A stretch of 61,632 nt of DNA, the filler included, from Dugesia japonica (lineage: Eukaryota): assembly GCA_001938525.1 (NCBI GenBank). It is 6 parts of 6 records of this genome, joined end to end, with 100 filler letters (N's around TTAATTAATTAA, not from the genome) between each part and the next. Parts side by side here need not be neighbours in the genome. Positions count along the whole stretch, not along the records: positions 39,466 to 53,010 come from MQRL01618800.1; 5 more parts are not named here. One strand, written 5' to 3'. The notes beneath the pieces are model-generated. The model saw only the letters and a program-made list of their open reading frames with translations, had not been told where the DNA came from and did no database searches. Positions within the stretch are counted from its first letter, which is position 1. The number at the start of each line of letters is the position of its first letter. Positions 11,320-60,690 of this stretch are shown here, in pieces. A program made the position numbers and the translations under genes.

Positions 11320-11435
11320 TGTAGTGTTAATATTTTAATACTAATAAACAAATAAATTCATTTGTTTACATATTGTGATTGAAATAAACATTACCAATTT
11401 AAAAGTTGTTATTATGGTGAAATCAGTTAACAATA
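11320..11435 (+). repeat. 5' LTR (116 bp)
   Basis: TGTAGTGTTAA...TTAACAATA; direct repeat of 14364-14479 with 6 mismatches counted by eye. Confidence 0.93.
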
Positions 11436-11436
11436 A

Positions 11437-11451
11437 TGTTGTCAGAAGTGG
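11437..11451 (+). promoter_or_regulatory. Primer-binding site, tRNA-Leu type
   Basis: TGTTGTCAGAAGTGG is one mismatch from TGGTGTCAGAAGTGG, the complement of a eukaryotic tRNA-Leu 3' end; lies immediately after the 5' LTR. Confidence 0.75.
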
Positions 11452-14349: not shown

Positions 14350-14479
14350 AGAGGGGGCAGTAATGTAGTATTAGTATTTTAATACTAATAAACAAATAAA
14401 TTCATTTGTTTAAATATTGTGATTGGAATAAACATTACCAATTTAAAATTTGTTATTATGGTGAAATCAATTAACAATA
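14350..14479 (+). repeat. Polypurine tract (AGAGGGGGCAG) and 3' LTR (14364-14479)
   Basis: PPT directly precedes the second LTR copy; followed by TSD ATAAG. Confidence 0.92.
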
Positions 14480-14785
14480 ATAAGCTTTGTCCGTCTTTAC
14501 AATCTTCAAGATAAATTTAACAATATTGAGAAGTTCCTTTAGTGTAGTACCAAATTCTACTTTGTGAATCGGTTAGGTCTATTTAAACTTGAGTACATAA
14601 TGAAATTGTTTCGTATAAAGTAAAAATCAACTATTAACGAAACACCATTGTCTAAATCAGTGGTTGCTAATTTGACATAGCATGTGAGCTGCTTTTCTTT
14701 CTCAAAGTTTCCTTCAATATATCTCCAGTAAATATGGTTCTATAATTAAAAATGATTAAAAAATATTTTATAAAAGTAGGGGGAT

Positions 14786-17839: not shown

Positions 17840-18670
17840 AATTAGTTTTTAATTAATTTCAATAAAATTTGTAATGAATTTTGATTAATTTGTAAGGAGT
17901 TTTGATTAACACTTTATTTAATTAATGAATTATAATGATATTTTAATTAATTAATGAATTATTTATTTATTTTATGACAATTTTAGAACAATGCTTATTG
18001 TATAATAAATGATTGTAACAAATCATCTCCATTTATATCATTAATTGAGCTATTAACTAACGCTTCTTCTTCACCGATAAAATCCTCCATAACAATATTT
18101 ACTTCATCCAATTTGAAAATCAGACCATTTTACATCTTTATTATTTTCAAACTCACTGTCAGTCATTATTTCTGTTTCATCTATCACAATATGTATATTT
18201 TCAATAACTTTCTCTTTTTTTATTTTCTTTGCTGGTCTACCATCTATTTTAATCTCTAATATTCTTTCAAATAATTTTTTCTTATTCACTTAAAATGGTG
18301 CTACATGATCCGCATGTAATTTGTAAAAATTTGAATATGCAACTATTTATACTGACCTACATACATGGCATAGATAACACTTTTTGTCATAAAGGATTGT
18401 GCACAGTATTTCTCCATAATACTATGCCAATCACTTTTATGCAATCAATACACACAATAATCCTTACACAACAAACATTGTTATAAAATTGTCATAAAAT
18501 AAATACATAATTCATTAATTAATTAAAATTTCATTACAATTCATTAATTAAATAAAGTGTTAATCAAAACTAATTATAATTCAATAAAAGTTAATGAAAA
18601 ATCCTTGCAAAGTCATCAAAATTCATTACAAATTTTATTAAAATTAATTGAAATTAATTAAAAACAAATT
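17840..18670. repeat. Foldback element: inverted arms about 17840-17993 and 18476-18670 around a coding-like insert
   Basis: Arms are reverse complements, e.g. gttttgattaacactttatttaattaatgaatt vs aattcattaattaaataaagtgttaatcaaaac. Confidence 0.8.
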
Positions 18671-23570: not shown

Positions 23571-25474
23571 ATTATAAATAAAAGATTAAATATGAAATAA
23601 ATTTAGATAAATCAAACAAAATATTAATTACTGTTAATAATAAAATTAAATAAGAATATAAACTTTCATCAATGTGTTTTTGACATGTGATTTTATTGAA
23701 AACGCAAAACGATTTACAAGAATGAATATAACCAATAAAAATTGGTAAATCTTATTATAAGGTATTTGAAAAATGTTTTTCTGAACTATACGTATTTAAC
23801 ACGCCGCGATAATCAAAGCCATCTTGCAAGCTAGCAAATTCTCCCCAGGTTTAATCATGTCCTGGTTCGGCCAGCGTAAAGCTATCAAACAAAACAAAAA
23901 GAGAAGAAATAAGAAGAAGACGCAAGGAAATGGAGGGACAGTTTGGAAACCCTAATTAAAGATGAATTAATGAAATTATTTTTNNNNNNNNNNNNNNNNN
24001 NNNNNNNNNNNNNNNNNNNNNNNNNNNNNNNNNNNNNNNNNNAGGATTTTAATGTTAAAAGTTTTTATTTGATAAAACCTTCGCCAAAACACATGAATAT
24101 TTGTGAAATGAGGTTCGAAGGTGTTAAAAATCGGAAATGATAAACAATAATCAATACTAATCTGAATATCCCAAGTTCGAGTCCTGGTGTGGTAGCCATA
24201 TCAGTTAAATTGAAAACTTCACAATGATCCATAATTTTATTCTCTATCACACCTGTTTTATTAAAGTTAAAAAGATTTAAGAATAATAAAACCAAATAAC
24301 CTAAATCTGAGAATATGAAATTTAAATTTAAAACTATCGATTTTTTTTAAAACAAAAAAAATACACATACGATATTTTTTAGTAATTTTTCAAATAATAT
24401 TTTACTAATTTTAAAAATTATTATTTTTATTATTATATTTTCTTCTATAATTTGAAAGATATTTTTATTCAAAATAAGTTTTTTACAATACAATATATAA
24501 AAATAATTTTAACCAAATTAATTTTTCAAAAAATCTTTTGACAAAAAATGTCTACTATTTAAAAATCTCTAATATACTTTTTTTAAATAAATAATTAATA
24601 ACCATTTTTTAAAATATTTCTTTGCTATCAATTTCGACGGAATAACGGTCATTGTCAGACAATTAAACAATATTAAAACAAACTTTTTACAAAATTCAAA
24701 TGATTATATAATTTCAATTGTGCAATCTCAATAAAAAATTTCAATAAAATAATTTTAAGAGCGATGTTNNNNNNNNNNNNNNNNNNNNNNNNNNNNNNNN
24801 NNNNNNNNNNNNNNNNNNNNNNNNNNNNNNNNNNNNNNNNNNNNNNNNNNNNNNNNNNNNNNNNNNNNNNNNNNNNNNNNNNNNNNNNNNNNNNNNNNNN
24901 NNNNNNNNNNNNNNNNNNNNNNNNNNNNNNNNNNNNNNNNNNNNNNNNNNNNNNNNNNNNNNNNNNNNNNNNNNNNNNNNNNNNNNNNNNNNNNNNNNNN
25001 NGCGTTACACCCATTACATTTAAATTGATAGACCAGATCAAAATATTCTAAATAATTTTTAAAAATATTTCAAGAAATCGTTTTAATATAATACTATATA
25101 ACCTATACTAAATTATTTAAATCAAAAATTTTTCCCAGATATGCATCATTTATGAATTACTCTTACAATGGTAATAATATTAAAGCTATAATTATTGATA
25201 ATGTTAATGTAATTCTATTGAAACTGATATGCATAAAAAAGTATAAGATAAAAATGTACAAATAATTTTTGATAATCTTACAAAACAAATGACTTGTCGT
25301 TTATGACTAATTTCTTTCATAATACTGCAGTAACCAGAAGGTGAAGAGTTACCTTGTTTTTGTAAGAAAAATAGTTTGGATCTGATTGTTTGCTAACGAT
25401 AGTTAAATTGTCTCTGCCCTTTTCTAAAACGTATTGGTTAAATTGGTGTGAAAACAGCATACTAACAGTAAAAT

Positions 25475-25892
25475 CAATGCTAGATGTGAATTTCTACTCT
25501 TTATTTGATCTTAAAAAATATTTTTTTTACTTTCTATACGCAATTTAATGTAAACAATGGATTTTTTTGTTATTTTTGTTTAAACCGTTGCACTCTGAGC
25601 AACATGAAATTATTAATATTATTATTTCTAATGTTTTTTTACAGGTGTGAATTTTCACAAATAATATTTTTTTTATTGAAGTGTAAAATTTCAAACATTA
25701 TTTTATATTAAAATGCTTTTATAAATGTGAATTTCAGACAGTAATAAAAAACGAATATTTTGTTTATTGACATGGAATTTTTTTCACACCATGAGTTTTC
25801 AAAACTAAAGTGTGAACTTTTGCACTCTAAAATGTTCACACAATAATTAGAAATTTTACACTTCAAACGTAACGTTTAACACATTAATTGTC
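25475..25892. repeat. Left arm of a long inverted-repeat pair (partner 29147-29628)
   Basis: caatgctagatgtgaatttcta...acacaataat is the reverse complement of attattgtgtgaac...tagaaattcacatctagcattg. Confidence 0.85.
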
Positions 25893-29146: not shown

Positions 29147-29628
29147 GACAATTAATGTGTGAAATCTTTCATTATTGTGTGAACATTTTAGAGTAGTCAT
29201 TAAGATGTGAAAGTTCACACTTTAGTTGTGAAAATTCATGGTGTGACCAAAATCCAAGCCTCTGCAAAAAAACTTTTTTATAAAATTATTGTGTAAAAAA
29301 TCACATGTCAATAAAAAAATAATTGTTTCTTATTACGGTGTGAAATTAACGTCAAAGGTCTGAAATTCACACTTATAAAAGCATTTTAATAAAAAATAAT
29401 ATTTGGAATTTTACACGCCAATAAAAAAATATTATTTGTGAAAATATACACCTATAAAAAAACTTTTAAAATAATAATATTAATAATAATAATTTCATGT
29501 ATTATTGCTCAAAGCGCAACGCTTTAAACAAAAATAATAATAAAAAAATCCATTGTTTGCATTAAATTGTTAATAAAAAAAATTTTTTTTTAGATCAAAT
29601 AAAGTTTAGAAATTCACATCTAGCATTG
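29147..29628. repeat. Right arm of the long inverted-repeat pair
   Basis: Reverse complement of 25475-25892 with indels. Confidence 0.85.
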
Positions 29629-29789
29629 TTTACTCTAAAGGCGTGAAATTTGGAGGCAAAGGTGTGAAAAAAATACCTTNNNNNNNNNNNNNNNNNNNNN
29701 NNNNNNNNNNNNNNNNNNNNNNNTTAATTAATTAANNNNNNNNNNNNNNNNNNNNNNNNNNNNNNNNNNNNNNNNNNNNAAAAATTTAC

Positions 29790-32700
29790 TTTTTTCGATT
29801 AAAAGTAATATGAAATTTGGATTGTTGGCCTCTGATTTGACTTCTATTGGATGCAAATCTATGAAACGGAGAACAATTAGAATTTGAATTAAAATTTTTA
29901 ATGTCAGATGGTCGAAGAGAAGATGCTGATTTTGAGGTAGATGAAGACGAATCGGTACTTTTCATTCGAGAATACTGTAATTTGATATAAATATGAAAAT
30001 AAAATAATTTAATTGTAGTAAATATAATATAGAAGTTTATTTAATTCATTTTAATTTTTTGAGTTTGTCAATGGCAATCAAATTCATGCTCAACAAACTA
30101 AAAAAATCAACAAGTACATTCTAACGAAAACTCAACAAACATGATTTCAACAAATAAAACTAATCAAATCACATCATATAATAAAATTCATTCTATTTGT
30201 CAGGCAATGCAACGAAATAAAGTCTTAACATATCTTAATCTAACCTTACTGCACCGGTTGAAGGAAATAATTATCATTGACATCCTTTAATATAAAAAAC
30301 TCCGCTAAAATACAGAAATTATTTTATTATCAAACAAGTATTCACATTAATTAATCAATAATCAAATTTCATGCATTTCCTTACTTGCCATTATTTATAT
30401 TTTATAAATATAACAAACACATTTTTCTTACGTAAAATCATACTTATTTATAAAGATTGAAATATATGTTCTCTNNNNNNNNNNNNNNNNNNNNNNNNNN
30501 NNNNNNNNNNNNNNNNNNNNNNNNNNNNNNNNNNNNNNNNNNNNNNNNNNNNNNNNNNNNNNNNNNNNNNNNNNNNNNNNNNNNNNNNNNNNNNNNNNNN
30601 NNNNNNNNNNNNNNNNNNNNNNNNNNNNNNNNNNNNNNNNNNNNNNNNNNNGAAATCTCTCCAATGCATGTGGGATTACAACCATAACATTTAAATTAAA
30701 AAACCAGGCCAGAACACAAGCCAAAATTGGTTATAGATTTATTATTTAACATAATTATAACCTTATAGAAATAGTAGTATTGTTGAGCATCGAAGAAAAT
30801 GTATAAAATCAATATGGTGTTCTGATTTTAAAATCTTGTGCAGTGGATTTAATAATTATTGGGAGAGAATGATGTGTGAAGCTTCGTTGATAAGGGCATT
30901 AAATTATAAAATTAATGTTCAGTTGACGGATTCAACATCACTCTTGAAATTATTTCATTGATTATTTATTGAGATTGCATAATTGAAATTATATAAATTA
31001 TTTTATTGATTATTTATTGATATTACATAATTGAAATTATACAAATTATTTNNNNNNNNNNNNNNNNNNNNNNNNNNNNNNNNNNNNNNNNNNNNNNNNN
31101 NCATAATTGAAATTATACAAATTATTTTATTGATTATTTATTGATATTACATAATTGAAATTATACAAATTATTTCATTGATTATTTATTGAGATTGCAT
31201 AATTTAAATTATATAAATTATTTTATTGATTATTTATTGATATTACATAATTGAAATTATACAAATTATTTAATTGATTATTTATTGATATTACATAATT
31301 GAAATTATACAAATTATTTTATTGATATTACATAATTGAAATTATACAAATTATTTTATTGATTATTTATTGATATTACATAATAGAAATTATATAGTCA
31401 TTTAAATTTTGTAAATAGTTTGTTTTAATATTCTTTAATTGCCTGATGATCACGGTTATTCCGTTGAAATTGATCGCAACTAATAAATATTTTAAAAAAT
31501 GGTGTTCTATTTTTTATTTTAAAAGAATTACCATTATTTTTTGAGTTTTTATGATCAATGGTAAATAAGATATTAAACAGAAATTATCTAGAATTTGAAA
31601 AATATCGTAACATCTTTTGAAATTAAAAGATTCAATCAATATTGCACACAAATATGCTTTCCGAAATAAACAAAAACGTAGGACAAAGTATTGAAAAATG
31701 TTTACTAGTACCACAAATAAGCAAGCAGCTAAAATTACAATTTCCCCAGCAGAATTTTTTCAAATCTTTCTTTTTTACGATAAATTATTTTCCGCATATT
31801 TTTTTATTAATTGAGATAATTCCTGATCTTCGATAAAAACTACATTATTACAAAAATATTATCATTGGAAGCGCATAATCCATAATTTCGAATAATTACG
31901 AACTTGGTTTTTACAAAATTTCAATGTTTCTGATCCGGATGATGAACAATCATTATTAATGTTATGATGTCTTCTACTTCTTGGCTCGGTCAATGGACCG
32001 GAATTATCACTGAATTTATTGCCACAACCATTATAAATTTCTGGAACATTTCCATTGGGAATTGGATACAAACAACCTTCTGAATTAGAACGACTAGTAT
32101 TCAAGTGCGCTTCAAATGCATTAGATTCCTCGAGATCTTTCATTTTTCGAATGCAATTTTGAATCTACAATCATAAAAAAATTTAAATCTCTACCAAAAA
32201 ATCTCTATCTCAAAACCAATTTTAATTAAAAGCGTACTTGTTCCTCTTTTCTTTTAATTTCTATTCTGTGTTTTTTTTCGTTTTCTTTTAATTTACCAAC
32301 AATATTTTGAAGAGTTTCAATTTCTCCCAAAATAGCATTCTTCTTTAATTGAAATGAAGACTGGAGATAATGATAAAGAATTCAAAAATCAAACTCAACT
32401 TACAGCATCTCCAGTAATACATTGAGTTCTAAGACTAAATTTCGTCAATTTTATTTGACCTTTAGGATCCAATATCTTTAAATCTAAGGGCATAACTTTT
32501 GTGATATTCTAAAAATATAATAATAATAATAAAAATTACATAAGGCTGTAAAAACATTTTGAAAAAATATGTCGAGTTGCACAAATTCTAACTAATATGT
32601 GTTAAATACACTGATTATTGAAGATTTATTTAGGAAATAATTCTTTATCGCATGAAAAGTTAGTTATAAAGTTTAGTATAGGGAAGAGCATAATTAAAAC

Positions 32701-38831: not shown

Positions 38832-40104
38832 CTAAATCGACCAAATCAATATATTCTCTCATTGTAAATTGATAATTCATAGTTATTATAATTTATATGT
38901 ATTATAAATGCAATGAATTAAGACATCTCATATCAATTACAAATGCTTCATATTATCGCATACAAACGTTTAACATAATTTTTCATACTTCAGATTGAAT
39001 CAAGGGTGCAAAACATATGGCCCAGTTATAATTATCATTTTTAAATTAAGTAAACAGATGGATTTTTAATTGAAAATCAATGATTATAGAACAATAAACA
39101 TTTCGCGATATTGATTATATTTGTTTTAAGTTATTTGTTTAATTACAAAAAAAATTAAAATAAAATTAAGAATCCATCTATCAATAAGTAATTAGTGTTT
39201 GTCTAATTTTCATTATAATCATTATTTGTATTCCACACCAAAAGAATCAGCAATTAATGTACTCAGTATATTCAATTTATGAAAGTTGTATTTTCTTTTC
39301 AAATAATCTTAACTGTGCATATCTGGCAGCTAATATGACATTTTATTGACAAAACACAAAAAATGNNNNNNNNNNNNNNNNNNNNNNNNNNNNNNNNNNN
39401 NNNNNNNNNTTAATTAATTAANNNNNNNNNNNNNNNNNNNNNNNNNNNNNNNNNNNNNNNNNNNNAGGAAGAGGAGTAATTGTCTCCTAAATAAAGACAA
39501 TTAGAAGTAAATTTTATTCTAGAGAATTAAGACACAAGAGTTACAAAGCCAAAACCGAAATATAATAGGCAATCAACGAGTCGGACTCTGACAAAATAGA
39601 TTCCGATTCAGAAAATAGGAAACCACTTACAAGGTCCAACACTTCTGGGATATTCACCTCAAGTACAGTCCTAAAAGAAAACCAACTCGCTCGACGAGGA
39701 TCAACAAGGAAACCCAAAAACTCATCACTCTATTTGGACTCAGAAGAGAATATTTGTTCATCCAGGAAATTAGAACTTGACAAGCCAAACCCCAAATCTA
39801 AAACGTTGGAACCCATCAGCTCAAGCAGTAGTCCGAGTGATAAAGAAAATAAAGCTAATCCAAAAACCACATCCAGTAAAACTCCAGTAGCTAGTAATCG
39901 ATCGAGTGGGATAAACTATACATCAGACAAAAAAGAAATCATAAAAGTAGCCGATAGTAATCAAGTAAATATCGACTCATTGGTAATACGGCCAAGCAAT
40001 TTAGAAACTGAAATACCTACATTAGCAAACCAAAACCCGAAAATGGAAACTAATCTCGCAAAAGATAAAAATATGGCAACTAAAACTGAAAACCATCGAC
40101 CAGA

Positions 40105-41000
40105 GTGAAAATAAAATTTGATGGCGAATATTTTAGCGGAATACCGGAAAAGTTAGATGAATTCATCCAGAATTACGAAATGTATGCCAAAATCTGTGGT
40201 TGGGACGAGGAAGCAAAAAGGAAGAGATTACCATTCTACTTGACAGGAGTAGCCAAAACGGTGTTCTGGGATCACACAAAGGGTATGGAAGCCATCCCCG
40301 ATAAATGGGAAGAAGTGGTGAAAATACTAACGGATAATTTCCAAAATTTAAAATTGACTGGCCAGGATTTCGAAAAATTCACGAATCGAAAACAACAAAG
40401 AGGAGAAACTTCACAAGCATATATGATGGAGCTCAAGAGGCGTGGCAAATTAGCCTTAGGAGACAAGTTGGAAGATAGTTAAGTACTCACCATCTTCTTG
40501 AATGGATTACGTGACGAGAACGCCAAGCTAATGGTAAAATTGAGCAAGCCAGTAACTCTACAAGATGCTCTAGCCACGTTGCGAATTGTAGGAGATAGAC
40601 CCTCAGAACGAATTTTGCAAAGTAGAAGGGCAGACAGAGGAAACCACACCACGGATATCAGATTTCATACCCAATACGCAATCAATGATGAAAACTCTGA
40701 CCCCAGGGCAGGAACGGAATAACCGAAATAACAGACCTAATTACCCACGAGGAAATGGAGGAGGATTTAATAACCTTCGGAACAATTGGCAAAATAATCG
40801 AGATATAAAATGTAATACCTATAGAAGACGGGGACATATAGCACGCGATTGTAGAAGCAGAAGTAATAATAACAACAACAATCGATTTTGCATTTATTGT
40901 AAGAAGACCAACCACAACATAGAAACGTGTTTCTTGAAAAATCCAACCGTCTGCTATAAGTGTAACAGAAGGGGACATATGGCAAAAGAATGTCAAAACG
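40105..41000 (+). pseudogene. gag: Gag capsid and three zinc knuckles
   Basis: FSGIPEKLDEFIQNYE...GWDEE...LPFYLTGVA..FW; RKQQRGETSQAYMMELK; FLNGL; CNTYRRRGHIARDC, CIYCKKTNHNIETC, CYKCNRRGHMAKEC. Confidence 0.9.
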
Positions 41001-41419
41001 GAAATCAAACAACTTACAATCGGAATCCGAATACGAATTTGGATAATCTAATGCAAGAAAATGAGAGATTAAGACAACGGGTAAATCAGAACAAGGGACA
41101 AGTTAATTTAGTGCACCAAAATACATTTGGCAATGTATACCACAAGGTGCAACAAGAAAATGATTGGCTCAAGTGGCAAAACCAAGATCTGCAGGTACAG
41201 CAAGAGAGACTCGCCAAAAGAAATCTGCTCAATGAACCGCACAAGAATCAGTGTAATATGGTCAGGACACACCGGCAAATTTATAACCAGTATGACGAAA
41301 CAACCGAAGTTACCGAAATGGAAGATACTCGAAAACGAATATTGATTACGTCGCCAGAATTTGACTGGACCGAAGAGATCATCTATAAAACAATAAAACC
41401 GTCGGTAACGACCACCGGA

Positions 41420-44400
41420 AGAAGACGGGTGATCAACCAGTTGCTCCGATTATATCAGCACCCACAAGTACACTCAAAGGTAAGGGCTAACTGGCAGAAA
41501 ACGATATCGGATTATATCACCGAGCTGTATAAAGAAACCCAGCTAAAAGACTATGAGTTCGAAATTCAATATATATGGCATAGCAACATAGAGGTCATTC
41601 CAAAACGAGTTAAGTTACTATTAAAAGGGTTGACTGTACGACATTTGAAAGAAGCTATGAATGAGATAAAATGGAGCGAAGTAAATGGTATCAAGGATAT
41701 GACTGTAAACCCGCTTCTCGAATTACCACTGTTTAACGTGCAGCAACGATGGAATGGAAAGTGGAGTGAGCACAGATTGCAATTAGGTAATATAGGAATC
41801 AATATTCTTCCAGATGACCGGAATCTAATATATTACGGAGCACGACCCCACGAAACTACCATAATTAAATTTATAAATTGGGATTCGGTATTCCGACCGC
41901 AAACAGTAATTCAGGAAATAGAAACCGACGAACTATATCATAATCTAGAAAAAACATTCCTAAAGAAAATTGTTCCCCTCCAGTCTCAAACGTACATGCG
42001 GAAAAGATTGGGGACAGTAAGGTTAATGGACCATCTGGAATTGGGGCAAATCGAAGCCCCAAGACTATCATTATCCCGAATTGATGAGATACTGGTAGCC
42101 GTCCAGAAACTCCATGATACCATCAGAAGGGATGTATACTTAAAATTGACGAATCGATTATTGGAGTTATTGGAAGTTATAAAATTGATCACCACTGAGG
42201 AAAGCGATTGGACAGAATGGTTACCTGTACATTACGATTGGGTAATATCCAATATGGGATTATCGGATTACCAAGTATGGTTGTATAACTCAGAAGGTAA
42301 AATGAAACTGACTCTTACGGGTTTAATGGTAGAAGATCTGGAATCAGCCCTGAATCAAGCAGGTTATCCATGTGTAACTGATAAATATGTATGTACTCCA
42401 GGTGCAATAGTAGATTTTAATGCAGAAAAAGACATATCTACGATTTCGGAAAAAACCAGGAGAAGAAATCAAACTGGTAATATTGGACAAACGATTACGA
42501 CATATGGGTAACGAAAACCGGAAGATTGGCATTGGAAATCATGAAAGAAATGGAATATCTGTATAAACAAGGAGTAGAACTTATAAAAATAAAGATACTT
42601 TCCACCGTGTTAGGAAAGAAAGACAAACTAACAAAGGAGGAGAGGAAACAGTTGCTAATGACGCGTAACGACTTCCTCAGGCAGCGAATGGAGAGCAGAG
42701 AGGGTAAATGCAACATGATAAAATGCGACAGATGCCATCGAGAGAGGTAGTAGCAATGCGTAAGGTGGAAGAAATGGTTAACCGAGTACAGATGGAATAG
42801 GAGAACTTACCCCGAGAAACCTATTGGATGATAATGAATAGAATCTACGATATATATGATGGACTAGAAATACCGGAGGCGATCGAGAACCAATGGCTCT
42901 TGATTAGGCAGAAGTATGCCAAAGAAATATTGGCAACTACCGAAATTCGGGATTATCAATTATATTTGAATATAGGTACAAATGAACAAGAATTGACTAA
43001 ATACAGCCGATTAAAACCACAAGGAATAACCATGATGGATTTAATGGATGCCATTACTGATAAGTGGCGAGAACAAGGATTAAAAATGGTACCTCTGTTC
43101 ATAAATGGCAAATTGGTAGAAACAGACGACGAGGATAAACACATATTCCAGTGCCATGCGAAGCCCGGAGAAATATGCGAGCTCGATGTAGAAGAAGATC
43201 CACGAATAGAGCGATCGCCAGATCTTGAGGAACGAATGGAAGAGATAACAGAATTATACGTATCCGAAGTATTGTCAGGTATAAAGGAACAAGTAAAAGA
43301 AAATCAGAAAATATAGAATATTGATAACTTACCAATAATCACCACAAAGTCAGTTGTATTTCCGGAAGGGACGCCAACAATACGTGATATTCGGATGAAC
43401 TATACCAAACCGATAACGGAGGAATCCGCCACGTTTCACGCTATCAATGATCTACTAAGAGTAACATGAGAAACGCGATCAGTAGTGAATATCAGGGTAT
43501 ATTGGAAAATGATGAATAACTTACGGGATTTGGCAATCTATGGGAAACTCAGTTTGTGGGCTCGAGCACAATGGTGGAAAGAGAAAAATCTATACGAAGA
43601 AGAAGTACAAAATACGTCCATCATATCCGACTACTCCATCAGAGTTAGTTTGCTCAACAAGGAAGGGCACATAAAAAGGTAGATATGATAACCTTNNNNN
43701 NNNNNNNNNNNNNNNNNNNNNNNNNNNNNNNNNNNNNNNNNNNNNAACTATCCGACACATTTTGAAACCTATAAAAAAATGGTTATGGCCAAAATCGATC
43801 AAGTCCTATAAAATGCAGGTGGGAGCAACCATGATCATACTAACCAAGAAAGAGGATCACATTTTCTTACATGATATTAAACCAGGAGAGGTTACAGATA
43901 TCAAGTTAACACCTCAGAAGATGACGGTAGATATTCCGATACCGAAGATGCCGGATACCGATCAACTTATATTCAACATGATGAGTTTGTATATACAAGA
44001 AATACTACCGGTAGAGAATGAAAGACTCATAAACACTTATGGCGAAAATAAAGCCCAAATAAACATGGTTCGGAGTAAAAACCATGACACCCCAGACCTA
44101 ACCTCAGATGAAGAAGAGCCGGAGGAGGAAATTTCGGAGGATATTGGTCAAGCCCGATTGTTACCATTTAAACAGGATTTCGCTGGTCCTTTCAGTTCTC
44201 CACAGACAGAGCGGATATCGAAGATAATTGCGGATTTTTGTTACTTCCAGGAAAGGATACCTCGAGTAAAGCATTAAATTTACTAATGGATCTGACAAAG
44301 TATACTGAAATAGCAAGGGAAGTTCGTGCCAAGTGGGAATCAGTAATCAAGCCGTATATTGGTACAGTGAAAGCAAGTGCCAGGGGAGAAGATTTTCAAG

Positions 44401-45910
44401 TCACGATAGAATATCTGACACCAAACAAGAAACCAAGGAAGGAACCAGAATCGGCTGTCATGCACATACCACATTTTAACAGCACGTCAGCGAGGGAATT
44501 ACAGGAAATTTTAACATCATTAGATATAGCTGACCAACAGAAAAGCTATGCGATTACAAGCGACCACTTGAGATTTCCGATAAAGTTTGAAGGAAAACAA
44601 CATCTAATGGACGTAGGGTTAAAACCCGGAGAAAATACATGTCTCCAAATACAGAAACTAGAGGATTACATTCCAGGCCCAGTAAAATCTATGGAGGAAG
44701 TAATACAACAATTATTGGAATTATACGAACAAGAAATCAACAGTGGACAGTTATTTGAAATAGTCGACGATAGAACAATGGAGATTAATATTGAATCATG
44801 GGAAGACAGTAAAACATGGGGAAGTTTAGCACGAGTGATAATGAAAATACTCTTAACCTTGGAAGAAAACTTGGAATTATTAAGACATGACAAAGTCATT
44901 CAATTAGTTCTGAAGCTAAATCAATTACGAGCCATAAGTCAAATGCCTGAAGACATAATGGATGTAATATTAAATAAAGCGGTTCAAATGATAACCAAAG
45001 AAGCCGTCAAAGTAACAATCAGATTTCCCGACGAAAGTGAAATTCGTTGGCAAATCCACATGAACGAACTATGGGCCAAGTTGCGGAAGAGGATTGTAAA
45101 ATTTATGAATCAACAACGTAGCCTCGACGAGGAGGAAACTGGAGCGCAAACAGCAGTCCAGGAAGACGACATAGTACTCTATTACAATCACGTAATAGAA
45201 TCAGACCAAATGAGGTTGCCAGTGAAATATATGGGGGTTTGGCCAGGTACTAAATCAAAAATTTATGTAACAGCAAAGGATGAAAAGAGACGACGACCAC
45301 GAGTCTCGGAGGAGAAGTGTAAGTAGAAAGCTAGGGAGTTGGTGGAATATTACGTAGAAGAGATACATCCATTAGTATTCGCTAGGGCTAAACTCACCAC
45401 ACAAGAACAAAATAAACAACGAGTAAAGATGGTAGCAGCTCTGACTAACACCCCGGTCAAAGACGAGAAGCTGGAAGACAATTTACCGAAATTGTTCGAA
45501 TTACTAGTAGGCGATAAGTTGATAAAGCCGGAAATTATACGACGATACAATATAGCCTTACAACAAGATCTGGCCGTAGAAGATCTCAGAAAATTGCGAC
45601 GATTAATACTAGCCATCAAAGTAGCACATGTATGGGATCCAGTTCAGTTCAATAAGATTCTGGTTAAATGGCGGAAAGCAGAGAGGGGCCAGCCCACGCC
45701 ATTGGAAGTTAAATTCAGAATAATTGATCCAGAAGGGGACAAAATCGCGGTTAGAATACCAGTATATAATACAATCAAACACATACGGGATAAGTTACCG
45801 TTTAAGTCACCATACAAACTCTTGGATGAGGACGGAATAGTGGAAGACATCACCATGATTGGATTGATGAAAATAGATTTAGTTAAACCTAATACGTTGT
45901 GGATTTTTCC
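41420..45910 (+). pseudogene. Cargo: about 7 tandem diverged modules, each helical + ubiquitin-like beta-grasp
   Basis: Recurring N.LL.L...W...Y...D(Y/F)(Q/E) followed by T..(D/H)L and a (K/R/W)PGE-hydrophobic strand; last modules align by eye to ubiquitin. Confidence 0.55.
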
Positions 45911-46643
45911 CGAATTAGGAGGTACTCTCACTCGAAAAGACACAGATCCTTTCAAAGTGGCAGGCAAAACTAGGCCAATAATGGGAGAAACCTCAGGTAT
46001 GCTAAAAGAATATAAACACCGCACACAACTAGCGGCTAGTCAAATATTAAGACCCACAACAGATCAATCGGGAAGCACAGAAGTATCCCGAGAAACTAAA
46101 GAAACTCCTAGAACAAGCCAAGATTGGGAACGCGAAATATTTGGATCACCATCAGCAGACGAGTCAGCCGAAGACGAAGACGAGTTACAAATTACAAAAT
46201 ATTCGCCTCCAACTAGAAAAAGGGAGGAAAGAAAGGATAAAGAGCCGACACAAAGTAAAAAATACGACCCTAGCAAGGTTGATTTCGATGAGGAAGACGT
46301 ATTGGACGACCAACCCTTGTCACCGATATTAAGCAGAATAGCCAAGGAATTGCCATCTTCGGTAATGGATGATTTGATGGATACAAACCACCCACTAGAG
46401 ATGGAAAATCCAATGGAAATAGAAGACGAGGAAGTACCGCCAAAGCCAGTACGCACCCATTTTGATGCGGAAACCATTACGGAACCACAAAATAGAGGCC
46501 GACCAAGAACGAAACCTCCGGGAAATCCAGGGGAGGAAGAGGCAATGAAACAAAAACTATTAACAACATCAATAAGTCATCAAACTAAGCGACTAGCAAC
46601 GGTATCTCAAGAAAGATACCACGAAAATCCAACAGATGATGAC

Positions 46644-46920
46644 ATGCCAACCGAAGTAGTAATACGGCAGTTACTGCTAATGTTATATTCAGAATTAAAA
46701 ATATGGATTGGGAAGTTTCAACTATCAGATACTCTCAGACCACTGGCAAAAGAAATAGAAGCAGCTATTAAGAAATTCCCTGCCATTAAAGGCACCAGTC
46801 ATGGTACCAGAGATAATTTAGAAGGAGTCATGGACGAATTACTACAAGATCAGCCAACAAAGGGACGAATAGTAGTATCTTTAGCACATCTGATTAATCA
46901 AACGCATCTATCAATCGCTA
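46644..46920 (+). pseudogene. Bcl-2-like domain (BH3 + BH1), C-terminally truncated
   Basis: SDTLRPLAKEIE (BH3-like, cf. LRRIGDELE), then at Bcl-2-like spacing NLEGVMDELLQDQPTKGRIVVSL (BH1, cf. FEQVVNELFRDGVNWGRIVAF). Confidence 0.6.
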
Positions 46921-46935
46921 GAAGCAAGTCGTCAA

Positions 46936-47986
46936 AAAACTTCATTCTCAGTAAATTACCGAATGCAAGATACCATCGGGCGAATGTACCACGATCTTAT
47001 TCAAAATGACTGCACATTGAATAAAGAAATATTGAAGACAAAGTTAGCAATGGCGGTTACAAATCCAGATAGTGTCACTCCACTACTTATCTCTGGAAAA
47101 GGGACAATTCGGTTGAGTAGTAGGAGAAGTAATGTACCTATACAAATGCAAGGCCATAGATGCCGAGTTCTCATCTAATCCCAAAAACTGCTACAATGAG
47201 ATAGAAATCATACATAATAACGAGAAACGATACGTGCAACCAATTACGCGAATCATATCATCACTGGGTTATAAGCCAAATATCATAAATTGCTCTAATG
47301 TATTCGGACCACAGTATATAATGACCGATGGTTCATGGATAAGATTCCCCCAACGAATGGCAAAGGGGATCGAACCACGAAAATTCTCAATGTTACGATT
47401 AAATGGAGGTATGCAATTCACCCCAATTGATATAAACAAAGGAGGAATATATAGCTGAGAAGATTTAGAAAAGGCAAGAGAATATATCTTGTTCCCAGTC
47501 CGGAGAATGCAAATCTTATCCAACATAGTGCAATTAACTAGTGGAACTAACATAGACGGATGAGTAAATTATGACGCATTATTATCAGCAGACCACTTTC
47601 AAAAGGCCACAGAGAATGTAATGCGGAAAATGTGGGGACGATTTATCATATTTGGACAAGCGATGGCAGGATTGTTGGTAGTTATGCTGATAATTTTGGT
47701 AACACGAGTAGTGATTACTCAATTGTTCGCATGTTTTGATATATACAAAAGAGAGAAGAAAGTGAATTGGAAAATGGTAACNNNNNNNNNNNNNNNNNNN
47801 NNNNNNNNNATGGTGCTTAATAGTCACTCCAAGGATATTGACAGAGTAAAGAGATTCATTCGGAAGCTCGGACAAATACGAGGATCAGACAAGGAAGTTA
47901 TAATGCAACTCAGACTATTATGCGAAGAAATGAGCAACGCAAAAAAGAAAATATCTTATTTCAACCAATTCAAAGAAAGATTTTAG
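46936..47986 (+). pseudogene. Chuvirus-like (Jingchuvirales) class III glycoprotein/env, C-terminal half with TM helix
   Basis: MYHDLIQNDCTLNKEIL...NPD...G...VVGEVMYLYKC...CYNEI....NN...VQPITRII...CSNVFGPQY...W...GGIYS*EDLEKAREYILFP...MWGRFIIFGQAMAGLLVVMLIILVTRVVI. Confidence 0.8.
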
Positions 47987-48569
47987 AATAAAGACGAAAG
48001 TAGTAGTAGCAGCGACGACGATAGAGGGGAAAGCAGTGGAGCCCCTCATGTACCCAGTTATAAAACTGCCATGGAATACCATGCGGAATTCAAAAAACAG
48101 CAATACGAAAAGATCAGTAAGATGCAAAGACTAAAAAATGCGCTAAAATTCGGAGGAGGAGAAAGCACGCCAGCACCAGCACAAATGTATTATAACGCTT
48201 ATCCGCAACATGGTTGGNNNNNNNNNNNNNNNNNNNNNNNNNNNNNNNNNNNNNNNNNNNNNNNNNNGAGAAAGCACGCCAGCACCAGCACAAATGTATT
48301 ATAACGCTTATCCGCAACATGGTTGGCAACCCATGAACCAATTACCTCAACAAGTATGGGCACCAGGTCCCCTGTACAACAATCCGTATATAAGCCCACC
48401 ACAAGCTCCCAATATGGCACTATTAACGAAGAACAATGTATCAACTATGGACCGAAGAATAATCGAACAAAACCTGCGCACTCCAAATAACCAAATTACG
48501 GAGCAGGATAAGTTAGAGACTCAAACTGTATGTATGATGATCTCTCAGAAAGCAAAATTATTACAGAAA

Positions 48570-48880
48570 AGGATAAAAATCGACGGAAGATGGGTAATAG
48601 CTATTATTGATACAGGGGCAAGTACGAAGTTAGTCCATAAAAGGATATTAGAAGATTATCGCCTACTTAGAATAACAATCACTAAAGGAGTTATCATCAC
48701 TGCCTCTGGAGAAAAAATCTCACCAGTGGGAGAAGCAATATGTGCGATAGAAAGCGATGGAACCCAATTCTGGCATAAACTGCAAATAATGAACGAATTA
48801 ACATTCGACTGTTTATTGGGGTTGGACCTCTTACCACGCCTTTGTCCGGAAGGAATACTGGATTTGAGAAAATTAACAAT
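48570..48880 (+). pseudogene. Aspartic protease 1
   Basis: IAIIDTGASTKLV (DTG at 48609-48617), ITASGE, CLLGLDLL. Confidence 0.85.
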
Positions 48881-49184
48881 ACGGGAAAACTATAATCAAG
48901 AAAATGCACCGGTAGGATATCAGAAAACCCGAATAATAACCTAACAGAAACGACCACAACAATGGAATCAGCCACCACCCAACCAGCTGAGACAGCGGCC
49001 AACTGGCCGAAATGAGCAAAACAATTCGAATCAAGACCGTCGGAAAATCACCAATACAGCCACCTTGATAAGGGACGATTGGATAAGGTTCCAAGAACGA
49101 GAACCAAGATGGAAAAACAAAATACCAACAAACTCTAGTCATAACCCTTCAGATGTAGTATGCGCAAGTCTCAATGGCGGACCG

Positions 49185-49510
49185 GTATTAACCATTATAG
49201 TTAAAATCAACGGCTGACCCATAACAGCTCTAGTGGACACCAGAGCAACCATATCATTGCTGTCGATAGATGAAATCGCGATAACCGAATACAAAAACAT
49301 ACTACCCACAAACACTATAGATGATGTGGCAAATGGTAGTAGCCTCAAAATCTTTGGAGAATTGGCCTGTGAAGTCGAATATCAGGATAACAAAATTAAA
49401 CATAATATGATTATAGTAGAAATGATGGGACAGTGCATTCTAGGAACAAATATTCTTCCAGTCTTGATGAAAAATGGTATATTGAACTTCGCGACATTGC
49501 GGTTACAATC
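49185..49510 (+). pseudogene. Aspartic protease 2
   Basis: ALVDTRATISLL (DTG mutated to DTR), VANGSSL, CILGTNIL. Confidence 0.82.
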
Positions 49511-49849
49511 ATCGGAAGGTTATACCCACGTAAAGGATCACGAGGTATTTACTACAGAAGAAATTGTGGTACCTAGTAGATTCCAAGTATCTTGCGTAGT
49601 CAGTACCAAAAGTGCCTATGAAGAAGATTGTTATTTGAACCGTATGACGGATTTGCACACCAGTACGAGCTACCCACGACAGGAGGAATAACCGCGGTCA
49701 ACAAAAGTGGGGAAGTACCAGTTAGCTTAGTTAATTTAAGCCAAACTCCAGGATGGGTACACTAACCCCCATCGAACCAGAACCCGAGGTGATAGAAGAA
49801 ACAGCCCCTGAACCGGAAATTGATAGAACATTTAAAGTGGAAACGGAAA

Positions 49850-52420
49850 CTTTGTCAGAAGACCAGAAACAAGCAATACTTCAATTTTTGGAAGAATTCC
49901 GAGATATTTTCGCATGAACCAATGAAGAGTTGGGTGTGTGCATCGCAACAATGCACACAATTCCATTAACGGATGAAACGCCATGTAAACAGAAACCATA
50001 AGCCATGACAGTGGAGAAAAAAGAATTTGCAAATAAAGAAACAGCTAAGTTAGTGAAAATCGGTGTGATAGAACCTAGCTGCTCACCATGGCAGTCACCA
50101 GTGGTGTTAGTAGATAAAAAGGATGGGACACAACGATTCTGTATTGATTACCGAAGATTAAATGCTCAAACTAAAAAGGATACTTATCCGTTGCCAGATA
50201 TCAACGAATTATTGCAACTACTATGTAATGCTAAGATATTCACCACGTTGGATCTGCGAAGCGATTACTGGCAAATAAAAATCAAACCAGAAGATAGAGA
50301 GAAAACGGCTTTTTCCACATGCAAAGACTTGTATTAGTTTATCCGTATGCCATTTGGACTTACTAATGCAACAGCCTCTTTCCAACGAATGAGGAATTAC
50401 GTAACTCACGGCATATCTCAATGTATGGCCTATATTGATGATCTAATAATCTATTCGCCAACCTTTGAAGGGCACCTTAATGACTTACGTAGTGTGTTTG
50501 TACGACTACGTAAATGGAATCTAAAAGTGAAACCCACCAAATGCGAATGGGCCAAGAATAAAGTAACATATTTAGGCCATTTAATATCGGATAAAGGCAA
50601 AGAACCGGATCCGTGAAATACGGAGAAGATACGAAATCTAGCACCGCCAAATTGTGGGCTTAAAATAAAGGAATTTCTCGGTCTCGCGAACTATTATCGA
50701 AAATTCATTAAGGATTTCGCTAAAATTGCGAAGCTGATGCAGGAGTTGGTTAAACAAGATACTGCCTTTATATCTGGACCACAACAACAACAGTCGTTTG
50801 AATCATTAAGAGATAAATTACTAACTGCACCAATTTTGGTACACCCTGATTTCAAGAAGCCATTTATATTAGCCACCGACGCGAGTGGATACGCGATGGG
50901 TGCAGTGTTGAGTCAATTAGATGAACAAGGCAGAGAAAGAGTAATCGCATATTTTAGCAAGAAATTTCAAGGGGCAGAGTTAAACTACAGTACTACAGAA
51001 CGAAAAATAATGGCTATTGTAAAAGCCACCAAACATTTCCGATCACTCATACACGGTCACGAAGTATTAATTTACACGGATCATTTACCAATCACTTTCG
51101 TGGCACAAAAAACACTACGATGGAATAGAATGGCAAAATGGCAACTAGCAATGCAAGATTATTGTCCTCTATTAAAATTTAAAACGGACAAAGCCAACTC
51201 AAATGCGGATTGTCTGTCAAGAATCGGTGGACCAGAAGTCACAGAGGATGCACCAGAAGACACAGAAACATTTACATTGCGAGAATTATTAGAGAAAAAA
51301 GTAGGAATGGTATACTTTATACTAGCTGAAGATAGAAACTTCGATGGATTAAAACAAGCACAGGCAGATGACGAGGAGATCAAGATCATCACGAAATATA
51401 TGGAAAATTATAACTTGGAGAAGTTAGAATGTGAACCTAAGATGAAGGAATATTTAAAGAAAAACGGAGGGCGTTATGCGGTCACTAAAGAATGGCTGAC
51501 AGCTCAAGATGGAGAAAACACCGTGTTAGTCATCCCTAAAGCAAGACGGGATAAATTACTTGAACAGTATCACAATGGTGTACTTGGCGGACACATGTCT
51601 CATAAGAAAACCAAATCCAAATTAAGGCAGAAATATTACTGGCCACATATGACAGAATCAGTGAAGGAATGGATTGCTAAATGCCAGATATGTGCTGCCA
51701 GACGAGGAACAGGAAAAAGAGTAAAGGCGTTATTAAAACCTATTGCAGTACCAGCGATGCCAATGGAAATCATAGCTATGGACGTAGTTGGACCATTACC
51801 ACCAACCCTAAGCGGAAATATCTACATACTTTCCATAATGGATTATTATTTCCAAAGGCATTTCCTATGAAAAATCAAAAAGCAACCACCATAGCAGATA
51901 TTCTGGTACGAAAGTTTTTCAGTAGATACGGTACTCCGAAGAAAATATTGACCGACCAAGGAAAAAATTTCATGAGCAATATAATAGCAGAGATATCAAA
52001 CTTCCTCAAAATACACCAACTACGGACATTACCGTATCATCCTCAGACGGATGGATTAACAGAGAGGTTTAATAAAACCCTGATCAATATGTTGTCCAGT
52101 TACGCTCAAAAGGAACAAAATAACTGGGATAAACATATTCAACTATGCCTATTTGCATATCGGATGAGTGTTCAACCAGCAACTAAATACACTCCATTCG
52201 GCCTTATGTATGGCAGAGAGTGCAACATGCCTATTGATTTGGAATTCCAACCACCGATAACACAATATCAAGACGAAACAGATTTTGCGGCCAATTTCAA
52301 GGAGACCATGCAGAAAATATGGAAACAAGCCAAGGAGAATGTAGGATTCTACCAAGAAAGTTATAAAGATTTACACGATATAACAGCCGTGCAACATTCC
52401 TTTAAAAAAGGCGAATTTCA
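49850..52420 (+). pseudogene. pol: RT - RNase H - integrase
   Basis: SPWQSPVVLVDKKDGTQRFCIDYRRLN, RMPFGL.NA.ASFQ, AYIDDLII, LATDASGYAMGAVLSQ, YTDH, ADCLSR, HNGVLGGH...CQIC, MDVVGP, TDQG, YHPQTDGLTERFN. Confidence 0.96.
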
Positions 52421-54394
52421 TGAATTTCATTGGAATTATCTCATTGGAAATTTTACCTTATTATGGAAATATAACATAATCTGAACTTATGGTGCTGTCT
52501 GTGGGGATTGAAAAGAAAAATATTTTTTTATCGCAATTACCCAATCATGCTTAGTGGGACAATTTTCGTTTAATTTGGCATAGAGCAAATAATTAATTGA
52601 AATATAATTTTAGTTTTCTCTTCATGATCATTTAGTTATTATCAAAGGTTTATTAAATTTAAAACTATGTTTATTGAACATTTTTATTATCAAATTGACA
52701 AATAATATAACAACAAAATTTTTTACTTTTAATATTAAGGAGTGAGTCTGCAACGGGTGACGCAAATGTGCTTTGAGATTCCAATTACTATTTCAATTTC
52801 TACTTTGATTTCTCTTTTTTCTGTNCTGCTAACTGAGTAGTTTTCTCCTGCTTGATTAAACAGTAATCTTCTGAACGTTTTTTTTTCAAAGTTATAAATC
52901 CACGGAATTTACAATGGTGCGGTTTAGTATTAATAGTTTTCACAAAAATTGTAGTGTTTTGACAGTTGGTTTTAGTTAGTTTTTTGGTTAGTTTTCTGCT
53001 AAAACCAGGGNNNNNNNNNNNNNNNNNNNNNNNNNNNNNNNNNNNNNNNNNNNNTTAATTAATTAANNNNNNNNNNNNNNNNNNNNNNNNNNNNNNNNNN
53101 NNNNNNNNNNAACCGCTCGGATGACATATATCCTCGCTACACCACTGAATATCACTTCTTTGTCGCAAAACACGGATTAATTAACATATTTCTGAAAAAT
53201 AATTCACATAAAAATTTTATTTTTCTTTATTCATTAATCTATCATCAATTAATTTTCTAATTTAATAAAGTTATTAAATTTCAGTTTTTCATTGTCTATT
53301 GTTTTCAAATTTTAACAATAAAATCTTTTAAAAACGTTTCCTATTGAGAATTATGTTGATTATTTTCAGTATCATGCAGTCAAAATATAAAATTTTAAAA
53401 ATCAAATTTTATTTAAATTAATAGTAGAATTAAAATAATTAAAAAATAATTTTGTTTTGTCGGAATAATTTTTTCTAATTAAATTTGAAAACCATTTCAA
53501 GAGAAAATTGAAATTTATGTAGTTATTACATGAAATTCCCGACCAACTCTGAATAATAATTATTTTATATTGTATTCATTTTTTTTAATGTCTAACAAAA
53601 TTTTTAAATAATTCAGAAATTTAATCGTTTATACAAAACTATTTATTTTATTAAATTAATAATTAAAAGCGATTGTAAAATTTGTGATGGATAAATATGA
53701 ACAATAAATGTGATATCAATCAAAATTGAGATAAATATTTTTTCCGGACAAAATGTTACAAAATAACAAAGAAAACATTTTTATCCTTATTTTATAATTA
53801 ATAAATTGGTTTGAATATTAAGTCTTTTCATATTAAATCAAATAAGCAAAATACTGAAAGCCCAATTCCTTTATAATATGATATATTTCCAATTTCAGAT
53901 TAAAGCAATTTTCAAATCTTTAAAACCATCCTTTGATGATTTGCAGGCCATCAACATTTAGCCATTGTCTAAGTTAATTTACTTTAGTAATAATAATTTC
54001 ATCAGTCAGATAGCCATTTAACGCATCCATTCGAGATATTCATTCGATCAATGAATTCTTAAGCAGAGAATGATTGTTGAAAGAATGTCTAGTGTTAGTG
54101 TTTGAACTCTAAAAATTTTCCTCATTATTCTTTATTTTTCTAAATTTCTGACAACGCAGATAGCGATAAGTCCAGGTTTAATTCTCTTTTGATAATTTAA
54201 AACAATTCAATCAGCGAAATTTTATTCGACTCCTTCATTATCCGATTAATTTAAACAAAAACTATCAGATATTTTTCAAAAATCGCTTTTCGATTACGGA
54301 TCGTGAAATTTCGGATTATTGAATTAAATATTACTGGAAACGTTAAAAAATTGAGAAAAAGTTTATAAATTTATAAAATACTTTTCAAATAGAA

Positions 54395-54545
54395 TAAATT
54401 TGATATAAAATACATTTTCTATAAAATAAATTTCCTAAAAAATCAATTTCCTATAAAATACTTTTTATATAAAATACTTTTCATATAAAATACTTTTCAT
54501 ATAAAATACTTTTCATATAAAATAAATTTCCTATAAAATATATTC
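54395..54545. repeat. Subterminal tandem repeats (about 16-bp TATAAAATACTTTTCA) of a Mutator/Phantom-like end
   Basis: Repeats directly visible, just upstream of a MULE transposase remnant. Confidence 0.7.
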
Positions 54546-54624
54546 CCTTTATCATTATTCTCTTTTATCATTATTTGTAAATATATATATATTAAAAGAA
54601 TATTAATTTTCTATTCTGATTTTA

Positions 54625-58222: not shown

Positions 58223-60690
58223 CAAGCCTGCACAACATATGGCCCGTAAGGTTTTTTGATGCGGCCCTCAACCCTTTTTAAAATTTCATAAAAATGTCAA
58301 ATAAAAAATCGAAATTTATATTTTTGTTTCTTATATAAAGCCTTTTTATTATTTTTTCTACGCAATTTAATAAAATTTTCTGTATTTCATTAAAAATTGT
58401 TTATGACCTCTCCATAAAAAATATTTCCAACGCTTTAATTATTTTTAATTCGAAAATTTTATTTCGATTTGTTATTTTATATCAAATTATTTATATAACT
58501 TTAGCTGCACTATAGAATTTTTCAAATGTTTTTACGTTTTCATTTTTAAAATAACTTTAGTGTATTTATTTTATTGATAAGAGAACATTTGCTTCTTTTA
58601 TAATTTAAAAAAATTATATTTAAAGCTTAATTAATTTAAACATTTAATACTATAAGTTAAATTAATTTAAAAATTTATATAATAGATTATACAATGAGTG
58701 AAAAGAAAAATATAAACTGAGCGTAGAATATTTACTGGGAATGGACAACCCGATATCTATTTACTTTATTGCAAGATAAGATAATTTGTCTCGTTTGCCG
58801 TGAAACAATACCAGTCTTAAAGGAATATAATCTTCGTCGCCACTTTGACACCAAACACCAAACATTTAAATTTGATGAAAAAAAGAAAAAACACAAAGCA
58901 GCGACTTTAATGTCAGCCATAAGTGAAGAGCAAAACATTTTAAAGAACATTGTAGCAGAGAATAAAACAGAAACTCGCGTAAGTTTTCAGATTTCAAACG
59001 AAATTGCTGCTGGAAAAGTCTTTATTGAAGGGGAATTTGTGAAGGAATGTATGTTAATGGCAGTTTTTAATTTATGTCCGGAAAAAAAGAAAAGGTTTGA
59101 GAATTTTAGCTTATCAAATATGACAGTACAAAGAAGAATAACTGAAATTTCAGCAAATATCAATGATCAACTCAAAAAAAAGCTCGGGAATTTTCATTCT
59201 TTCATTTGTGTATGAACGAAAGTACAGATTTACAAGATATTGTCCAACTTAATGTTTTTATTAGGAGAATTGATTAACATTTTAATATTACTGAGAAGTT
59301 TGTTGGAATATGCTCCATATCTGGACGCACGACAGGAAAAGTATTATTTAATGAAATGACAAAATGTTTGACCGACAATTTGAATATTGATTTTTCTAAC
59401 TTGGAAGCCCTTTGAACAGATGGCACCCCAACTATGTGTGGAAAAAATATTGGTGCTGACACACTCCTTTAAGAATTTACTGGGAAGAAAATTATACAAT
59501 TACACTATATTGTGCATCTTTTAACTTTTGAATATGTAATGAAAGTGATAGTTTATGTTGTTAACTATATTCGATCTAGTGNACTTAAGCATANAACTTT
59601 TAAGGCTTTTTTAGAAGAAGTGGATAATTGAGTGGATAAGTGGTTGAGCCGTGGACGGACGCTACAGCATTTTGTTGATTTGAGATCCGAAATTGTTGCT
59701 TTTCTTCAAAATAAATCACGAAAATTTCTTGAACTTCAAGATGACGCTTGGAATTTCGATTTATTTTTCTTCTGTGATATTATACAGCATTTGAATGATT
59801 TGAATATGCTACTTCAAGAAAAAAAAACAATCTATATTTTGAATTGTTAGCTGCCGTGAGAGCTTTTAAAATAACGTTGAAACTTTTCAGAAGTAAATTT
59901 TTAAAAAGTGAAATGTCTCATTTTCCTACTTGCAAGCAACAAACAAAATAAATCAAGAACAATAATATGCAGAACAAGTCAATTGGCAAAGAATTTGAGA
60001 GAAGATTTGCCTTATCTGATGAAACATAGGGTCATCTAAAAATAATTGAAGATCCATTTTCTGTTGACATTGAACATGTACCACTTGAGTTGCAGTTTAA
60101 GGTTATTGAATTCCTGTTTTCAATATATTTTATAAAAGGAATTACAGGGAAAAAACTTACTGAATTTTTACAAAAGTTGGGACAAATATAAAAAAAGGAA
60201 TAGAATTTGCAATTAAAATGCTCAGCATTTTTGGTAGCACTTACTTATGCAAACAAATCTTTTCACTAATGAATTTTAATAAAAATAAACATCGTTCTTG
60301 TAATTGCAATTATTGTGAGAATAATTAATGGACTTTACCATTGATTGTATTTGAGATTTCATTAAAATAAAGAAAAGCTTCAATCAAAATAAAATGATCA
60401 AAACTTTTTTTCATTTTTTATTGAAATCGTTCTTGTCTTACAAATGAACACATGAAAGACATTTTAAGAACAGCAACATGAAATATGACACCAGAATATG
60501 ATAAGCTTGTCAAGAAAAAGAAGTGCAATACTTCTCATTAAATTTTTTAAAGATATATTTTATTAATATAATTTAAAACATATTTTTTTTACTTTATTAT
60601 TATCAAACATAGTCTTTTATATTAATTCTGGACCTCAACAATTTTCCCTGAAATTCTTGACCCTTAAAGCAATCTAAGTTGTGTTGTTTC
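58223..60690 (+). mobile_element. hAT transposon, SPIN/GTF2IRD2-like transposase pseudogene
   Basis: Left end CAAGCCTGCACAAC; ICLVCRETIPVLKEYNLRRHFDTKH; GEFVKECM; ESTDLQDIVQL; TDGTPTMCG; WLSRG; FGSTYLC; degenerate right end near ...AAGTTGTG. Confidence 0.9.

Follow-up and report, generated by a model that had tools for sequence, protein, structure and literature searches.

The window analyzed here is a stretch of 61,632 nt from Dugesia japonica (assembly GCA_001938525.1), of which positions 39,466-53,010, counted like all positions below along the window, come from record MQRL01618800.1. The record contains a decayed, dead copy of a Gypsy-type, Burro-type Gag-Env-Pol retroelement, which hosts the segment that is the subject of this analysis (Table 1). 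On the + strand, Pfam profiles give the order Gag, ubiquitin-like domain (a weak match), class III Env, protease, RT, RNase H and integrase; the Bcl-2-like segment is located between the ubiquitin-like match and Env. Env is thus placed between Gag and the protease, and the Gypsy pol order PR-RT-RH-IN is present. ORF and profile searches detected stops and frameshifts all along the element, and a repeat search found no LTR pair bounding it; its 5' side is limited by an assembly gap. The Env profile was matched at positions 322-370 (E 1.3e-6) and 367-578 (E 7.6e-39), so that only 322-578 of its 653 positions are represented. No match to BIR, RING, MATH, ankyrin or dUTPase profiles was found in the element. 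When bases 45300-47780 (2481 bases) were compared with four sequencing runs, 5254, 7241, 4955 and 1454 contigs were 80-99+% alike, indicating a high copy number, with these values counting contigs and not element copies.

Table 1. Features of the retroelement and of the Bcl-2-like segment (window coordinates).
Feature	Position	Strand	Evidence or remark
Element, visible extent	39467..52420	+	GC ~36-41% vs 15-36% in most flanks
Gag: Retrotrans_gag and CCHC knuckles, broken	40231..41020	+	PF03732 E 3.4e-5; PF00098 E 1.8e-5
Ubiquitin-like domain, weak	45006..45119	+	PF22900 E 0.0012-0.0037, under the Pfam cut-off
Stop-to-stop polyprotein fragment carrying the domain	45327..47009	+	556 codons from TTG at 45339
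Likely Bcl-2-like domain, ~alpha1 to start of alpha6, 3' end cut	46644..46960	+	Profiles, models, selection
First helix, TEVVIRQLLLMLY (BH4-like in the preliminary description)	46650..46688	+	Unaligned by both profile methods
BH3-position helix, LRPLAKEIE	46734..46760	+	Within both profile alignments
Alpha4 and BH1-like motif, VMDELLQDQPTKGRIVVSL	46827..46883	+	Sequence read; profile alignments
Junction	46958..46962	+	Sister contigs diverge from the window; Env profile position 322 directly after
Class III (Monjiviricetes-type) fusion glycoprotein, C-terminal half	46963..47746	+	Two frames, stops; PF24664
Aspartyl protease	48573..48836	+	PF13975 E 7.6e-6
Second protease-like stretch	49218..49460	+	PF00077 E 0.0068
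RT, RNase H, integrase	50113..52043	+	PF00078 E 2.8e-31; PF17917, PF17921, PF00665; stops, one frameshift

Several further features were observed within the element and elsewhere in the window. The two tandem protease-like stretches upstream of RT read DTG and DTR, respectively, in this copy. Positions 45700-45920 resemble by eye a second ubiquitin-like beta-grasp domain, for which Pfam gives no Ubl match, and an identical run of 59 bases (48159-48217 and 48268-48326) flanks a 50-N gap inside the element, probably as an unmerged assembly overlap. Outside the element, a 3.2-kb unit at 11320-14481 with 118-base direct repeats at its ends (95% alike) is likely a small deleted LTR element and contains, by eye, gag-, protease- and integrase-like ORF pieces. 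A retroviral-type protease-like fragment (LLDTGA) read by eye at 16524-16889 on the - strand belongs to another element, and an ORF at 58727-59215 on the + strand resembles the N-terminus of a hAT/GTF2IRD2-type transposase. Inverted-repeat pairs with 86-92% complementarity (17847-18653; 25472-25739 with 29358-29631) resemble small non-autonomous DNA transposons, and tandem arrays are found at 30899-31452 (48-base period) and 54324-54611 (16-base period). On a separate 129.6-kb viral contig, a gene at L001:244-825 is, by eye, very near vertebrate BCL2 in BH4, BH1 and BH2.

The preliminary description of this DNA had read a Bcl-2-like domain, with BH4-like, BH3-like and BH1-like elements, at the end of a 556-aa ORF. 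We found TEVVIRQLLLMLY, LRPLAKEIE and VMDELLQDQPTKGRIVVSL in the order and at the places given there, and all three motifs share the frame of the ORF. The length of 556 codons holds when counted from the TTG, but the ORF is in frame with 44172-45326, separated from it by a single TAG, and is therefore a piece of a broken polyprotein and not a separate gene; its final 16 codons (from 46959) are Env DNA read out of frame past the junction. A helix is predicted for TEVVIRQLLLMLY, but the BH4-like label is unsupported, since both profile alignments described below begin at the BH3-position helix and leave the first helix outside. In LRPLAKEIE, a K occupies the position at which the BH3 consensus has D.

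The 3' end of the domain is cut at position 46960. Sister contigs track the window to 46960-46962 and then continue with other letters (7 + 14 contigs in one run and 12 + 11 in the other, counted among the loose ends listed, best 12 of 38). In the comparison of 45300-47780, one piece stops at 46960, a second at 46962, and a third starts at 46958 (among the best 32 of 18,952 matches). This junction is either a deletion or an assembly mis-join, and we infer that the end of the domain and ~320 Env profile positions, over 1 kb, are absent from this copy. As the BH1 Arg is followed by only 30 residues before the junction is reached, and the BH2 Trp of the reference proteins is at +42, BH2 is missing from this copy, in agreement with the preliminary description. 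A second, smaller break within Env was observed at 47087-47091, with a frame change, a depth dip and loose ends of sister contigs.

Sister copies were compared over 46815-46975 using two DNA runs (365 and 252 contigs), in which 23 differences were listed at a frequency of at least 10%. In the frame proposed for the domain, 18 of these 23 differences are synonymous (32% expected, P 7.6e-6) and 16 of 23 fall at third positions, while the other two frames give 6/23 and 1/23. The differences are not independent because the copies are related; nonetheless the frame signal is clear, and the reading frame over this interval is under purifying selection at the protein level. Within TKGR, all variation in the K and R codons is synonymous, and the T and G, like the I, V and V that follow, are without a listed difference. 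The G-R-I-V stretch, on whose conservation among sister copies the earlier proposal had depended, is accordingly free of amino-acid differences. Because these amino acids are without a listed change among sister contigs, TKGR represents the state of the family and not decay. The motif that had been described as an altered NWGR does read TKGR, but the replacement of N and W by T and K is family-wide and is not damage to one copy.

Searches of general libraries gave no support for Bcl-2. In Pfam, the ORF and its 149-aa end matched no Bcl-2 family at E<=1, nor did two shorter pieces at E<=10, with the queried domain being truncated. The segment also had no match in PDB sequences, in word-index searches, among 1.84 billion representative proteins, in viral contigs or in the Atlas. 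AlphaFold models were of low confidence, both from the single sequence (pLDDT 62, pTM 0.46) and with 36 Bcl-2 rows supplied (pLDDT 66, pTM 0.45), and each contained four to five helices, including the first helix. No Bcl-2 structure was matched when both models were compared with the PDB by Foldseek, the second with BFVD and the first with VIA-wide, using a piece that is without most of alpha6-alpha8, the helices that close the Bcl-2 fold. The expectation that profile and structure libraries would recognize Bcl-2 was for the most part not borne out: Pfam and Foldseek named none, and only a purpose-built profile matched, modestly.

This profile was built from Bcl-2 proteins fetched by a motif scan that was independent of the window. 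Of 88 distinct cores, 3 were discarded as chance matches and 85 were kept, and PDB searches confirmed the set as Bcl-2; as the references were chosen by NWGR and a fixed spacing, divergent Bcl-2 members are under-represented. Aligned to the 85 proteins with hhalign, a 110-aa piece of the segment scored 75% probability (E 2.6e-5) over 55 columns that span the BH3 helix through BH1, a score matched by 0/150 shuffles and 0/150 block shuffles. HMMER gave the same piece 7.2 bits (P = 2.6e-4), which was matched by 1/3000 shuffles and 8/3000 block shuffles. The shuffle P values are post hoc, since the piece had been selected by its look. Both methods align the BH3-position helix through GRIV, in register. 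Among 115 windows of the element ORFs, the three covering the segment ranked 1-3 by hhalign and the next, unrelated window reached 9%. By HMMER, four integrase windows scored slightly above the segment over the same 115 (7.8-8.5 vs 7.2 bits), and a held-out viral Bcl-2 truncated at the equivalent place scored 44.8 bits. When all 931 six-frame pieces of the window were scored, the ORF with the segment came out at E = 2.4 and rank 7.

An ungapped comparison of alpha5 with the 85 references showed a general fit to +6, with departures at +4, +7, +9 and +11. The segment has S, H and Q at +4, +7 and +11, where the references are 98-100% hydrophobic, and I at +9, where 94% of them have a small residue; by this comparison, the segment lacks the buried hydrophobic alpha5 with small residues that the references share. 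Taken alone, the sequence evidence for Bcl-2 is suggestive.

The location of the segment within the element provides further evidence. In planarian Burro, a Ubi2/SUMO-like domain precedes BCL-2, and Env lies between BCL2 and the protease (PMC6431247, section 7). The BCL2-like cargo that the preliminary description had mentioned for Burro1 is thus in print, between a ubiquitin-like domain and Env, and matches the place of the segment; PMC6431247 credits the motif to Grohme et al. 2018, and also cites Jurka 2007 in connection with the giant Burro / GYPSM1 Gypsy elements. Burro / GYPSM1 and the element analyzed here have in common a CCHC Gag, a ubiquitin-like domain (weakly matched in the present element), a BCL2-like segment, a mononegavirus-type Env between Gag and Pol, PR-RT-RH-IN, and very many copies, with decaying copies containing stops and frameshifts described in one species (PMC6431247). 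Compared via the published description, the present element differs in having ~13 kb visible, no LTRs assembled and a truncated domain. The Platyhelminthes GAG-ENV-POL errantiviruses with an HSV/gB-type Env, as presented in portions of PMC13524379, are similar in gene order and Env class, and S. mediterranea elements 1 and 2 are listed there at ~14.8 kb, near the size of the present element plus its missing part; Bcl is mentioned neither in the main text of that source nor in its 7 text supplements. Given the published Burro position of the BCL2-like motif, we conclude that the Bcl-2 reading is likely. The segment then probably represents the first two-thirds, from the N-terminus, of a strongly diverged domain of the Bcl-2 family in a Burro-type polyprotein. 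The Bcl-2-like reading of the preliminary description is in this respect retained, on the basis of position and the hhalign probability, but it did not gain the support of library or fold searches.

We considered whether the segment could instead be a conserved helical polyprotein domain unrelated to Bcl-2, with 'VMDELL...GRIV' being a chance likeness chosen post hoc. Such a likeness would account for the blank library and fold searches, the window-wide E of 2.4, an integrase helix that equals the segment in HMMER and the poor alpha5 pattern beyond GRIV, and purifying selection indicates a protein but not its identity. However, it would have to produce two spaced motifs in register, a first rank among 115 hhalign windows by a wide gap, and a location at which a BCL2-like motif has been published for such elements. 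We therefore regard an unrelated domain as improbable, and consider it probable that the segment is of Bcl-2 origin, with a BH3-binding, anti-apoptotic role being likely in intact members.

It is also conceivable that the segment is derived from Bcl-2 but has lost the ability to block BH3-driven death, and serves as a membrane-tethered scaffold, an inhibitor of innate signaling or a structural Env leader. Some poxviral Bcl-2-fold proteins act as membrane-tethered scaffolds or as inhibitors of innate signaling. The segment has features that would fit such a change: the family has a fixed TKGR in which the N and W have been replaced, the BH3 Asp is absent, and the second half of alpha5 is polar. 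In addition, the SPGR variant of ORFV125, according to extracts of PMC9027176, binds Puma ~250-fold more weakly. Against this, and in favor of a BH3-binding role, the residues that the segment retains, the G and R, are those of NWGR that the same extracts name as important to BH3 binding, ORFV125 is functional with SPGR, and extracts of PMC13465017 report that Burro1 has a working anti-apoptotic IAP. We judge a role other than blocking death to be the least probable of these explanations, a small chance counted in addition to that of the favored reading, with which it shares the ancestry and from which it differs in function.

Under the favored reading of a BH3-binding Bcl-2 domain, intact members of the family would make a Bcl-2-like domain within a single polyprotein, and processing at the Env boundary would release it. 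The retained Gly-Arg of BH1 would then hold the BH3 helices of host pro-death proteins, so that cells expressing the element would stay alive, in parallel with the IAP that Burro1 is reported to carry. Judging from its non-canonical BH1 and from an alpha5 whose second half is polar, the domain may have narrowed or altered binding. The anti-apoptotic role would be that of the domain in intact members; the copy under study cannot protect its host cell, because of its stops and the junction inside the domain. Viral Bcl-2 proteins offer a partial parallel, as far as the extracts cited describe them. ORFV125 is likewise a Bcl-2-like domain that a mobile genome has captured, with Gly-Arg retained and the first two residues of the motif changed, while KsBcl-2 has a canonical NWGR (extracts of PMC11209288). 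In contrast to this polyprotein segment, known from its sequence, these viral proteins are encoded by genes of their own in large DNA viruses; their folds are solved and their binding has been measured. Burro1 B-IAP, which in the account of Lee et al. 2026 given in extracts of PMC13465017 protects stem cells from apoptosis, is an anti-apoptotic cargo of the same kind of element, but it belongs to a different family (BIR + RING, acting at the caspase level), and no such domain was detected in the element here. BURRO1 is expressed upon SMEDWI-2 loss, as stated in extracts of PMC8532177.

Publications have described BCL2-like cargo since 2018-2019, and the Burro1 IAP has been reported to be anti-apoptotic; what is added here is small, namely the protein-level selection on the segment and the finding that the odd TKGR is a family trait. 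In the literature covered, in which Grohme 2018 and Lee 2026 are represented by papers citing them, we found no test of the structure or function of the BCL2-like cargo, and the truncated copy in this window is poor starting material for functional tests. We tentatively propose, as a possibility that falls short of probable, that the element family keeps a selected Bcl-2 variant with a fixed TKGR, a remodeled alpha5 and its own binding rules, which would serve as a second, mitochondrial brake on apoptosis. If this is true, the Bcl-2 variant and the Burro1 IAP would constitute two brakes on apoptosis in host stem cells. Retrotransposons with captured cell-death regulators blur the boundary to large viruses, and such regulators may influence stem-cell survival in regenerating animals.
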